Source: Candidatus Kaiserbacteria bacterium
GTDB taxonomy: Bacteria; Patescibacteriota; Minisyncoccia; Phycocordibacterales; JABAAK01
Direction of reading: 5' to 3'
Length of the DNA: 64,000 nucleotides
Assembly: GCA_026713605.1 (NCBI GenBank)
Contig: JAPOOC010000008.1
Location: 16,889 to 80,888 of the forward strand
A model generated the notes under the pieces. The model saw only the letters and a list, made by a program, of their open reading frames with translations, was not told the origin of the DNA and did not search any database. Positions 4,922-7,286 of this stretch are shown here, piece after piece; the first letter of the stretch is position 1, and the number at the start of each line of letters is the position of its first letter. The position numbers were made by a program, and so were the translations under genes.

Positions 4922-6370
4922 AGAGTTTGATCCTAGCTCAGGGTGAACGCTGGCGGCGTGGATAGGGCATGCAAGTCGAACGGGTTCTTCGGAACCAGTG
5001 GCAAACGAGGTAGTAACAGGTAGGAACTTACCCCTCAGTCGGGGATAACGCATCGAAAGGTGTGCTAATACCCGATGGACTCTACGGAGTAAAGATTTAT
5101 TGCTGAGGGAGAGGCCTGCTTCGCATCAGCTTGTTGGTAAGGTAACAGCTTACCAAGGCAATGACGCGTAGGGGAGGTGAGAGCCTGACCCCCACCGATG
5201 GGACTGAGATACGGCCCATACTCCTACGGGAGGCCGCAGTCGAGAATATTCCGCAATGGACGAAAGTCTGACGGAGCGACGCCGCGTGGTGGATGAAGGT
5301 CTTCGGACCGTAAACACCTTTTATAAGGGAGGAAGTTTATTGACAGTACCTTATGAATAAGGGGCTCCTAATTCTGTGCCAGCAGGAGCGGTAATACAGA
5401 AGCCCCGAGCGTTACCCGGAATCACTGGGCGTAAAGCGTCTGCAGGTGGTATTGTTAGTCGTGTGTTAAATTTCTCGGCTCAACCGAGAGCATGCACACG
5501 AAACGGCAATACTAGAGGACAGGAGAGGTGTGTGGAACTCACAGAGTAGGGGTGAAATCCGTTGATACTGTGGGGAACACCAAATGCGAAGGCAGCACAC
5601 TGGCCTGATTCTGACACTCAGAGACGAAAGCGTGGGTAGCGAATGGGATTAGATACCCCAGTAGTCCACGCCCTAAACGATGCTTGCTGGCTTTTTGAGG
5701 CATTGACCCTTGAGAGGCGAAGCTAACGCGTTAAGCAAGCCGCCTGGGTAGTACGAGCGCAAGCTTAAAACTCAAAGGAATAGACGGGGACTCGCACAAG
5801 CGGTGGATTATGTGGCTTAATTCGATACTAAGCGACAAACCTTACCGAGGTTAGAAACCTACACGACGACAACCCGAAAGGGATGTTTTCTTCGGACGGG
5901 TAGGCAGGTGATGCATGGCCGTCGTCAGTTCGTGGTTTGAACTGTTCCCTTAAGTGGGGTAACGAACGCAACCCTCGTCGTCTGTTATATATGTCAGGCG
6001 AGACTGCCCTCTCACGAGGGAGGAAGGAGAGGATGACGCCAGGTCCGCATGTCCCTTGACACCTCGGGCTGCACACGTAATACAATGGCTGCTACAACGG
6101 GAAGCCAAAGCGCAAGCTGGAGCAAATCCTAATAAAAGCAGTCTCAGTCCGGATTGAGGTCTGCAATTCGACCTCATGAAGTTGAAATCGCTAGTAATCG
6201 CGGATCAGCATGCCGCGGTGAATGCGTTCTCGAGTCTTGTACTCACCGCCCGCCAAGTCAGGGAAGTTGAGCGTACCCGATGCCCCATCTTGTATGGGTC
6301 TAAGGTAAATTCAATGACAAGGGCTAAGGCGTAACAAGGCACGGGTAGCGGAAGCTGTTCGTGGAATAAT
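4922..6370 (+). rRNA. rrs: 16S ribosomal RNA (3' boundary approximate)
   Basis: 5' agagtttgatcctagctcag. 515 region gtgccagcaggagcggtaatac. 1390 region cttgtactcaccgcccgcc. gtaacaagg near the 3' end. ~1.45 kb, no 23S downstream in the window. Confidence 0.9.
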
Positions 6371-6590
6371 TCAAATGAAACTTCTCTCGAAAGAGAGATG
6401 GATCAATTGGTCTTACGCATTTTGATGCGTGAGAGTAGGACGATGGTACCGTGTCCGTAAACCGTACTCGCTCTCCCGGATATGCGAAACCGGGACGGTT
6501 GGAGCAAGAGAAAGTTGTTTGTTGAGTGGTAGTTTTGGTGTTATGTGTGGTATATTGATACTAATTAGTAATGTAAATGTAGTACTGTTT

Positions 6591-7286
6591 ATGAAGATAT
6601 TTAATAAAATGGAAGGTGCCAAAAAATCTGGCGAGGAAAATGTTGCTGAGTTTAAGAAAGATATTGCAATAACTCGTGAACATCATAGTGTTGAAGATTA
6701 TGTGGAACAATTACAGGACAAAGGGTATGAGGTTGTTTCTGCTGTGGTGTCTTGCTTAAAGGAGATGGGTATTGAAGAGGGAGATGATAATGCGAGTGTT
6801 GTCAGGGTTACCTTGGAAGATCTCGGACTGTCCGAAAGTGATGGTGTTGCTATTGAAGAGATTCTTGCTGTCGCTGAAGAACAAGGGCTCGGGCTTTGTC
6901 CCGCATGGGTTGCTCTTCAGTATTGTTTAAATTCTCTTGAGCACTATGTTGATGAAAATGATGTTCATAGATACGCTGCAAATTTTGGCATGAAACTGCC
7001 GAAAAATATACTGGAAGATTGGAGAAAAGAATCCGCGATGAGAGATGCAAAGCAGGATATAAAAATGAAAATAAAGAAAGGTAAAATTGACGGGAAAGAT
7101 GAAGAGGAAGTCACACGACTCATTGAAGAGCAGGCAATGAAATATTTTAACAGTAGTGTCGGTGAGGATGTAGTTATTTCAACCGGAAAGTTTTCTAATT
7201 TTCCCACGAAAGAAGGTGCAAGAAATGCCCAAGTAGTAACTTTGGGAGAACAAGGGCGGGGTGTGTGGGTGTTTGTGCAAAAATAA
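6591..7286 (+). CDS. hypothetical acidic protein
   Basis: ORF of 231 aa starting at ATG 6591 (MKIFNKMEGAKK). No recognisable domain. Lies directly after the 16S trailer. Confidence 0.4.
   Translation: MKIFNKMEGAKKSGEENVAEFKKDIAITREHHSVEDYVEQLQDKGYEVVSAVVSCLKEMGIEEGDDNASVVRVTLEDLGLSESDGVAIEEILAVAEEQGLGLCPAWVALQYCLNSLEHYVDENDVHRYAANFGMKLPKNILEDWRKESAMRDAKQDIKMKIKKGKIDGKDEEEVTRLIEEQAMKYFNSSVGEDVVISTGKFSNFPTKEGARNAQVVTLGEQGRGVWVFVQK

Follow-up and report, generated by a model that had tools for sequence, protein, structure and literature searches.

A stand-alone 16S rRNA gene of Candidatus Kaiserbacteria with a substituted 3′ tail, no recognisable anti-Shine-Dalgarno sequence and a conserved, pseudoknotted 3′ domain

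The pairing of the Shine-Dalgarno (SD) sequence with the anti-SD at the 3′ end of 16S rRNA is how, according to the textbooks, bacteria select their start sites, and few known sequences are as conserved as the anti-SD. Within the Parcubacteria, a group of the Candidate Phyla Radiation (CPR), it was detected in only 48% of members, and the lineages without it overlap the group that lacks the ribosomal protein uL1 (Tsurumaki et al., 2022, RNA 28:1041, PMC9297842). This loss has so far occupied one sentence in one paper, where it is left unexplained. Anti-SD loss in other phyla has been catalogued (Amin et al., 2018, PMC6107228; PMC10783764). In Flavobacteriia (Chryseobacterium, Elizabethkingia, Riemerella), Blattabacterium, some Mycoplasma and Carsonella, the CCUCC core has been lost or substituted throughout the lineage in a functional 16S rRNA (Lim, 2012; PMC6107228; PMC10783764). 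Here we describe the 16S rRNA gene of a 64,000-nt stretch of Candidatus Kaiserbacteria DNA (hereafter, the window, to whose positions the coordinates refer), in which the anti-SD tail is missing and a structured trailer follows, and whose neighbouring genes offer a plausible reason why the loss is tolerated, namely start sites of leaderless type, as in mitochondria.

The window fits the published Parcubacteria group: it belongs to the same taxon, has no CCUCCU after helix 45, and uL1 is missing from its place after L11. The published account is confined to a rarer detection of the motif, and describes neither a replacement tail nor a 3′ domain, leaderless starts or persisting SD elements (PMC9297842). 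As in the anti-SD-less bacteria of other phyla, the core is substituted across the lineage in a functional 16S; unlike them, with their short tails and absent SD motifs (PMC6107228; PMC10783764), the present clade keeps a minority of AGGAGG elements and carries a long structured extension. A second kind of likeness exists with organisms dominated by leaderless mRNAs, such as Deinococcus deserti (~60% leaderless, PMC4007540), the Actinobacteria and the archaea Haloferax and Sulfolobus, where the ATG follows a -10 box at a distance of a few nucleotides. These organisms, as seems to be the case here, combine a leaderless majority with an SD-led minority, but they keep a canonical anti-SD on their 16S rRNA, which the window lacks. 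The logic is also that of mammalian mitochondria, whose 12S rRNA has no anti-SD and where initiation takes place at or near a 5′-terminal start codon; these are nevertheless organellar, use dedicated factors, and have neither SD-like elements nor a structured 3′ extension. That a Parcubacteria subgroup has lost the anti-SD and that CPR have unlinked rRNA genes is thus already known in outline, whereas the character of the substituted tail, the conserved and pseudoknotted 3′ domain within the processing stem, the leaderless gene organisation and the paradox of SD elements without an anti-SD appear to be new.

The interpretation that we favour, with a probability of about 0.7, is that we see here a functional 16S rRNA gene, the only one visible and standing alone, of a Kaiserbacteria lineage whose anti-SD tail has given way to a conserved 3′ domain with a pseudoknot, the loss being tolerated because most mRNAs would be leaderless. 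The transcript would run past the substituted tail into that domain, a long leader-trailer stem would bracket the 16S together with it, RNase III being the presumed cutter, and ribosomes would start at a 5′-terminal AUG with the initiator tRNA, making SD-anti-SD pairing unneeded.

In all, ~82 kb of this genome was covered, comprising the window and flanking sequence, with an upstream extension of 13.6 kb taken from L130 (L-numbers label compared loci from other assemblies or genomes). L130 (ENA ERZ27241795) and L131 (JGI 3300027532) represent the same organism, independently assembled. The ADK-like kinase and the L11 protein of the window are each 100% identical to NCBI entries of Candidatus Kaiserbacteria (Patescibacteria group, Parcubacteria group). 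The comparison rests on the window 16S and seven further distinct 16S genes, namely L039 (OZ244939.1, 641 kb, labelled Ca. Paceibacterota, with 91% identity to the window through the trailer), L079/L127, L092, L033, L122, L124/L126 and L125, collected by a scan of a genome collection and a scan of metagenomes. The pattern used for the former, GTACNCACCGCCCGCCA, was too loose: it gave 120 matches, mostly random and from high-GC genomes, and the useful ones were L039, L079, L092 and L033. A scan of viral contigs gave no match to the helix-45 signature.

The Rfam model SSU_rRNA_bacteria (RF00177) matches 4915-6376 on the + strand with 1368 bits (gathering score 50), covering model positions 1-1533. 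The parts of the gene to which the argument refers are the following:

4922-6363, + strand: 16S rRNA body, from AGAGUUUGAUC through helix 45 (full-length RF00177 model; 93.4% identity to L039)
5363-5394, + strand: 530-loop region, in which the 515F site is variant and the pseudoknot compensated, 505-507 UCC / 524-526 GGA
6239-6255, + strand: decoding-centre strand with C1406 and U1396 (alignment to the model)
6338-6363, + strand: helix 45, intact, with a GGAA loop, GGCACGGGUAGCGGAAGCUGUUCGUG (model alignment)
6364-6381, + strand: substituted 3′ tail GAAUAAUUCAAAUGAAAC, in place of GAUCACCUCCUUU (model alignment and relatives)

The core of the molecule presents several deviations, one of which, in the 515F site, had been pointed out in a first-pass annotation of the window and indeed exists (GTGCCAGCAGGAGCGGTAA, 5376-5394). 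There, GA stands in place of CC at 525-526, and this is offset by UC in place of GG at 505-506, preserving the 530-loop pseudoknot, which is GGC/GCC in its canonical form, UCC/GGA in the window and L039, and UGC/GCA in L079, L127 and L125. In the decoding centre, C1406 co-occurs with G1495 (6326-6339), a Watson-Crick pair thus replacing U1406.U1495. Covariation of this kind is expected only in rRNA under selection. Furthermore, the ten pairs of helix 45 are all kept in the eight sequences, one of them with compensatory variation.

Immediately after helix 45 the similarity to the model is broken. A re-scan of 6150-6700 with Rfam, with inspection of the alignments, places GAAUAAUUCAAAU where the model expects GAUCACCUCCUUU or, in short, GAAUAAUUCAAAUGAAA where GAUCACCUCCUU is expected; neither CCUCC nor CCTCC occurs in 6364-6600, and the single-stranded tail 3′ of helix 45 is thus devoid of a CCUCC anti-SD. 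The same holds for the whole clade, whose tails conform to GGA(A/U)U(A/U)(A/U)(U/G)UC(A/C)A(A/G)(U/G)(G/A)A, those of the relatives reading GAUUU(A/U)GUCAAAUGACAA, with no anti-SD at that place in any of them. One can still make out the register of the old tail (GGAU....UC...U) and, judged from these alignments, the 13-nt anti-SD tail is substituted in place within the clade, from GGAUCACCUCCUU to GGAAUAAUUCAAAU or GGAUUUAGUCAAAU. The new tail contains a mini-hairpin of 3 bp, UUC-AAAU-GAA, that covaries (GUC/GAC in six sequences, UUC/GAA in two). Two other loci found through the G1495 signature, L121 and L123, have a normal CACCUCCUU tail, and therefore the substitution is not a by-product of the search pattern. 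A long-range pairing of the tail (UCAAAUGA) with the conserved UCAAUUG of the trailer is possible at 7/8 pairs; it is unsupported by covariation, is broken in L039 and L122, and was discarded. No k-mer complementary to GGAAUAAUUCAAAUGAAAC is enriched upstream of start codons, which led us to reject an SD co-evolved with the new tail.

As a separate observation, the tail GGAACACCTCCTTTCTGGAG is present twice in L121 (2560-2715, - strand), ~85 nt apart, which indicates that the anti-SD was copied in an insertion or duplication immediately past the 3′ end of the 16S. As a clue to a displaced tail this locus was set aside, being an ordinary 16S-tRNA-tRNA-23S operon of another lineage.

Past the substituted tail the gene runs into a conserved domain of ~130 nt in the window (130-190 nt across the clade), made of four hairpins, the first being that inside the tail, and an H-type pseudoknot:

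6382-6398, + strand: hairpin 2, variable, UUCUCUC-GAAA-GAGAGA (tctctcGAAAgagaga)
6399-6410, + strand: linker with the conserved CAAUUG (UGGAUCAAUUGG)
6411-6434, + strand: hairpin 3, with a 10-bp stem, UCUUACGCAU/AUGCGUGAGA (tcttacgcat/atgcgtgaga), and a UUUG loop
6438-6468, + strand: H-type pseudoknot, with S1 GGAC/GUCC, and S2 formed by GGUAC in the S1 loop and GUACU
6474-6495, + strand: hairpin 5, UCCCGG-AUAUGCGAAA-CCGGGA, with a compensatory change at 3/4 scored pairs

When whole trailers were given to MAFFT and RNAalifold, helix 45, the mini-hairpin and hairpin 3 were recovered and the pseudoknot arms were misaligned. The arms of five helices were consequently extracted by hand from the eight sequences, their order was verified in the real trailers, and pairs were counted on the resulting pseudo-alignment; hand-picked arms bias the outcome towards pairing, but not towards compensatory variation. 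In this alignment 98.9% of the cells are standard pairs and 17 of the 23 pairs show a compensatory double change, and in 500 shuffles none reached any of the five measures. Hairpin 3 has compensatory changes at all seven scored pairs. Stem S2 of the pseudoknot occurs in four covarying forms, GAUUG/CAAUC, GGCAC/GUGCC, GACAU/AUGUC and GGUAC/GUAC(C/U), with double changes at four of its five pairs and every cell paired. The motif (U)CAAUUG is present in 8/8 trailers; the window and L039 have it in the linker, the six others in the hairpin 3 loop. In L039 and L033, hairpin 2 has CCUCC as its 5′ arm. The window trailer folds at -43.8 kcal/mol, as compared with -32.8 ± 3.6 for shuffled sequences (z = -3.0). 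Moreover, identity between the window and L039 is 93.4% for the 16S body, 74.3% for the trailer, 59% for the distal leader and 47.5% for the sequence just beyond the stem, and the trailer is therefore constrained, though less so than the rRNA core.

None of the 4227 models of Rfam 15 matches 6377-6600 of the window at E ≤ 10, and the L079 trailer gave noise around the terminator only. A resemblance to 5S rRNA (GCGUGAGAGUAGGAC recalls the 3′ part of E. coli 5S) was discarded, as it has no Rfam match, is not conserved and corresponds to the 3′ arm of hairpin 3. From the DNA alone we lean slightly towards the trailer being retained on the mature 16S rather than removed, because a stable pseudoknotted domain would resist 3′-to-5′ trimming. 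The domain may represent either an rRNA expansion of a new kind or an element used in assembly.

The signals that surround the gene in its transcription unit are the following:

4719-4734, + strand: putative rRNA promoter P1, an extended -10 (TGGTATACT) with no -35
4771-4784, + strand: possible second promoter P2 (TGTATATT), as suggested by its sequence
4797-4813, + strand: boxA-like antitermination element UGAUCCUUACAAUUAUU, conserved in L039 as UGAUCUUUUACAAUUAUU, which we take to resemble the E. coli rrn boxA (UGCUCUUUAACAA)
4877-4910, + strand: 5′ (leader) strand of the 16S processing stem
6496-6532, + strand: 3′ (trailer) strand of the processing stem
6548-6561, + strand: extended -10 (TGGTATATT) of the next transcription unit

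The motif TGnTATAnT of P1 recurs before many genes of the window. The two strands of the processing stem enclose the 16S and the trailer domain together. At the core of the stem, 4893-4910 is a perfect complement of 6496-6513 (18 bp without mismatch), and the predicted duplex reaches -59.8 kcal/mol, against -28.2 ± 4.0 for shuffled leaders. Compensatory changes are found in L039, and in L079 the two strands are entirely different and yet complementary. In E. coli, the 16S is likewise surrounded by complementary leader and trailer strands that form an RNase III stem; its 3′ strand starts ~33 nt past the mature end, whereas in the window ~130 nt of structured RNA lie between helix 45 and the stem. 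The stem would presumably be cut by RNase III, since CPR retain the genes for RNase III, RNase J and PNPase (rnc, rnj, pnp; PMC12641178).

Directly after the trailer comes an intrinsic terminator in L079, L092, L033, L125 and L127. In the window, ATG 6591 opens an open reading frame (ORF) of 231 aa. A public gene call starts it at GTG 6429, within the trailer (6429-7286, 285 aa), which is probably an over-extension, ATG 6591 behind the -10 box at 6548-6561 being more plausible. No 23S, 5S, tRNA-Ile or tRNA-Ala gene is present in the window, which includes 57.6 kb downstream of the 16S, and no 23S, 5S or spacer tRNA in the 13.6 kb further upstream. Exclusively unlinked rRNA genes are described for several clades, the Patescibacteria included (Brewer et al., bioRxiv 10.1101/705046), and the separation of the 16S from 23S-5S seen here does not differ from that description.

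Every element listed in the first-pass annotation was found at its coordinates, and its main statements have thereby been substantiated: that the 16S 3′ end lacks an anti-SD after helix 45 (by the model alignment and the absence of CCUCC in 6364-6600), that a structured trailer follows (by fold, covariation and conservation) with hairpins that we find at 6382-6398 and, as the 10-bp stem, at 6411-6434, and that the 16S is unlinked to 23S and tRNA-Ile/Ala and followed by a protein gene at 6591. It had also envisaged a CCUCC-bearing terminus displaced beyond an intervening sequence; we looked for it, and the transcription unit contains none further downstream.

Just upstream of the 16S promoter there is a G/T-rich tract (gtgtgggcagttgtgttctgcgtgttgggtgtgg..., 4560-4720), unconserved in L039, for which a role as an UP-like element is possible.

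Regarding the messengers, a near-consensus -10 box precedes the start codon by 4-11 nt in 16 of the 48 ATG genes of the window (33%, as compared with 2.8% of internal ATGs, p = 5e-12), the hexamers often appearing as TGnTATAnT. A T precedes the start codon in 32/48, and every k-mer enriched before start codons belongs to the -10 box. The same picture came from 91 ATG genes of five related genomes, taken from public gene calls made independently, with a -10 box in 41% against 7% of controls (p = 2e-16) and T at -1 in 65% against 22%. Genes in operon-like arrays also carry their own -10 box, inside the preceding gene. Such promoter geometry looks like the signature of leaderless initiation in most mRNAs, T(-1)A(+1) being the likely transcription start, that is, at the A of the ATG. 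A search of the literature returned no paper linking CPR and leaderless mRNAs.

Some individual genes deserve mention in this context. Transketolase is split into N-terminal and C-terminal genes (8707-10617), each with a -10 box directly before its ATG, so that adjacent and functionally coupled genes are individually leaderless in type. Two near-identical genes of ~120 aa (53917-54273 and 56156-56518) have near-identical promoters, tatggtg(c/t)tgtgttaga(g/a)tattgttATG, in a region of lower GC with several unannotated ORFs. IF3, which in E. coli discriminates against leaderless mRNAs, is encoded at 20163-20780 (- strand) with a good N-terminal domain and a weak C-terminal one (21.8 bits against a cutoff of 34.8), and the same is seen in the relatives.

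A minority of genes is nonetheless preceded by SD elements, among them the following:

19462-19467, + strand: AGGAGG 8 nt before the ATG at which the ADK-like kinase gene (19476-20123) starts
25484-25489, + strand: AGGAGG 9 nt upstream of a lipoprotein gene (25499-25825), in a leader of ~35 nt behind a TGGTATACT promoter
28945-28950, + strand: AGGAGG 5 nt upstream of 28956-29345 (KH_NucS_shadow family)
43558-43563, - strand: AGGAGG 9 nt upstream of 43138-43548 (- strand)
3522-3530, + strand: AGGAGGAGG, preceded by the -10 box GGTATTCT and located 6 nt upstream of a membrane ORF of 61 aa (3537-3722)

AAGGAG and GGAGG precede 42849 and 14697, respectively, both on the - strand, and several SD-led genes have a recognisable promoter 12-60 nt further upstream. 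The first-pass annotation had singled out the motifs before 19476, 25499, 28956 and 3537, all of which are present 5-9 nt upstream of an ATG, and had found them hard to reconcile with the missing anti-SD; this unease was justified, and the conservation of AGGAGG in orthologues of related genomes has made the evidence stronger.

These elements weigh against the interpretation that we favour, which does not account for conserved AGGAGG on ~10% of genes, those that are leadered. AGGAGG stands 5-9 nt before four ORFs that are 100 aa or longer, as against an expectation of ~0.25, and once more before the 61-aa ORF; in the relatives, SD 5-mers are found before 11% of genes and 4% of controls (p = 0.008). 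The AGGAGG of the kinase lies 8-11 nt upstream in five of six genomes (window, L136, L137, L128 and L138), that of L129 being degenerate. The leader flanks have diverged beyond recognition, the kinase proteins being ~45-50% identical (as measured for L128 and L129), and the neighbourhood L20-kinase-IF3-SecE-NusG-L11 is conserved in the six genomes. For the lipoprotein gene, the promoter, the AGGAGG and the 9-nt spacing are kept between the window and L128, while the flanks differ (a homologue search with the lipoprotein returned only itself). The persistence of AGGAGG amid diverged leaders argues that the elements are read by something, and no CCUCC-type partner for them was found in the leader, the 16S tail or the trailer.

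The candidates for such a partner were discarded one after the other. Hairpin 2 has a CCUCC arm on its 5′ side in L039 and L033 only, the window having UCUCUC there; CCUC is not a conserved feature of the hairpin 3 loop (YCUCAAUUGA); pairing with GGAGG is conceivable for the linker CGCUCUCCCGG, which however reads CUUUUCC in L039 and does not occur in the remaining six; the CCCUCCUUC of the L079 leader is in a hairpin and has no counterpart in the window or L039; and the CCTCC at 4681, the only one nearby, in the G/T-rich tract, is upstream of the promoter and unconserved. Duplex energies between SD leaders and the trailer are no better than background. Likewise, a resemblance to CsrA sites in two window leaders (AUACAAGGAGG) is not common to the orthologues.

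Of the 69 copies of AGGAGG in the window, 55 are on the + and 14 on the - strand, the majority of them within genes, and SD-like sequences are therefore not avoided in coding regions. GC skew is strong and persistent over 1-64000, with (G-C)/(G+C) up to 0.34 on the + strand, where most genes lie.

Two alternatives concern the nature of the 16S gene itself. The tail, the 515 site and one base of the decoding centre are all unusual and could be taken as marks of a pseudogene or of an assembly or chimera artefact, both of which had been raised in the first-pass annotation; we grant this a next to negligible probability. Since the core changes in the 530-loop pseudoknot and at 1406-1495 are without exception compensated and conservation extends across the clade, the gene is functional and not a pseudogene, in keeping with its full-length match of 1368 bits and with an architecture common to eight lineages; since the independent assemblies L130 and L131 are identical to the window over ~11 kb spanning the 16S 3′ end and the trailer, an artefact is excluded. 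That the trailer would be an intervening sequence or intron within the 16S, followed by the true anti-SD-bearing 3′ exon, is in turn highly improbable. The idea draws on the frequent insertions reported for CPR rRNA genes (Brown, 2015, as cited in PMC9297842) and on the unrelated rrn operon L121, with its ~85-nt insertion after the tail and then a second copy of the anti-SD tail. What follows the trailer here, however, is the 3′ strand of the leader-trailer stem, with no rRNA-like sequence beyond that might be a 3′ exon; next come an intrinsic terminator without CCUCC in five relatives, and a promoter and an ORF in the window, and Rfam gives no match to group I or group II introns or to any other family.

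The remaining alternatives concern the SD elements. An anti-SD could exist elsewhere, in a second rrs copy, in a separate small RNA docking on the 30S subunit, for which the conserved 3′ domain might be the site, or as a non-canonical partner in a retained 3′ domain, implying an ordinary dual system of leaderless and SD-led initiation; this is a real possibility, although we hold it to be somewhat unlikely. It would explain why AGGAGG is conserved and correctly spaced within divergent flanks (in the kinase of 5/6 genomes and in both lipoprotein orthologues) and why all SD-carrying leadered genes with a recognisable upstream promoter have their SD at the right spacing, and the CCUCC arm of hairpin 2 in L039 and L033, paired with a GGAGG-like purine strand, is compatible with a sequestered anti-SD remnant. 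Nevertheless, the same hairpin is UCUCUC/GAGAGA in the window, the eight trailers have no conserved pyrimidine motif that would complement AGGAGG, the duplex energies of SD leaders with the trailer stay at background, and the intergenic CCTCC sites of the window are parts of tRNAs or the antisense of SDs. As for a second rrs, one rRNA copy is usual in CPR, and in two assemblies the contig runs through the 16S without a break, an argument against a near-identical copy. Alternatively, AGGAGG might not bind ribosomes by RNA pairing at all, being a relic or import that came with horizontally acquired genes or serving another purine-rich role (protein binding site, leader-processing signal, unstructured standby site), which we consider unlikely. 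In its favour, the SD-led genes of the more distant L079/L127 lineage form a high-GC island (0.55-0.62 as compared with 0.47-0.54 elsewhere), as would fit a recent import, of secreted proteins resembling outer-membrane proteins and a second cmk copy; AGGAGG is so common on the purine-rich coding strand (55 copies on +) that some chance placement is expected; and surveyed organisms without an anti-SD are generally without SDs (PMC6107228). The SD-led genes of the window have, by contrast, an ordinary GC content, the kinase neighbourhood conserved in six genomes, with AGGAGG in five, indicates vertical inheritance under purifying selection, and the 5-11 nt spacing to the ATG is what an SD needs. 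Finally, these could be functional SDs under purifying selection on the few leadered mRNAs and read by something other than the 16S 3′ tail, candidate readers being the conserved pseudoknotted 3′ domain, if retained, a trans-acting RNA docked on it, or a protein; this too we see as doubtful, and if true it would constitute a new mode of bacterial start-site selection.

The coexistence of SD elements with an anti-SD-less 16S runs counter to the published rule that without anti-SD there are no SDs (PMC6107228). Its resolution would reveal either a hidden carrier of the anti-SD or SDs that work without the 16S tail, and both bear on the flexibility of translation initiation in uncultured CPR, on gene calling and on heterologous expression.

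As to the genomic context, the ribosomal protein region relates the window to the uL1-lacking group:

21561-22733, + strand: L11 gene (21561-21986) followed by LemA (22170-22733) and not by uL1, according to Pfam

L11 is followed by a gene other than uL1 also in L128, L136, L137 and L138. The absence of uL1 refers to its canonical site after L11 within the ~82 kb covered, L10-L12 lying ~9 kb to the left of the window. The block reads NDK - x - L20(-) - kinase - IF3(-) - NusG - L11 in the window, SecE being called between IF3 and NusG in relatives. The kinase between L20 and IF3 (window, L128, L129 and L136-L138) is a divergent second nucleoside monophosphate kinase of ADK type, the most consistently SD-led gene of the clade, and L138 has in addition an ordinary adk in the SecY-Adk-Map position.

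Directly upstream of the anti-SD-less 16S of L127 (6500-8340, corresponding to L079 1060-2900) lies a three-gene island with a GC of 0.55-0.58, encoding signal-peptide proteins, with a strong SD on each gene. One of the proteins ends in ...GGLKLTF, which we take to be typical of outer-membrane proteins; in a presumably monoderm CPR, the island was probably acquired horizontally.

Two other regions of the window look like mobile or defence islands: a low-GC segment (0.33-0.39) at 44000-50000, with an 851-aa ORF without Pfam match and an N6/N4 methyltransferase, and a restriction-modification and defence cluster at the right end (60700-64000, together with L133 10000-17000), comprising a D12 methyltransferase, DpnI, a DUF87 ATPase, SduA_C and BglII. 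Among the related loci, L137 contains at 17516-20423 part of a giant gene, called as 10,488 aa, that runs off the locus.

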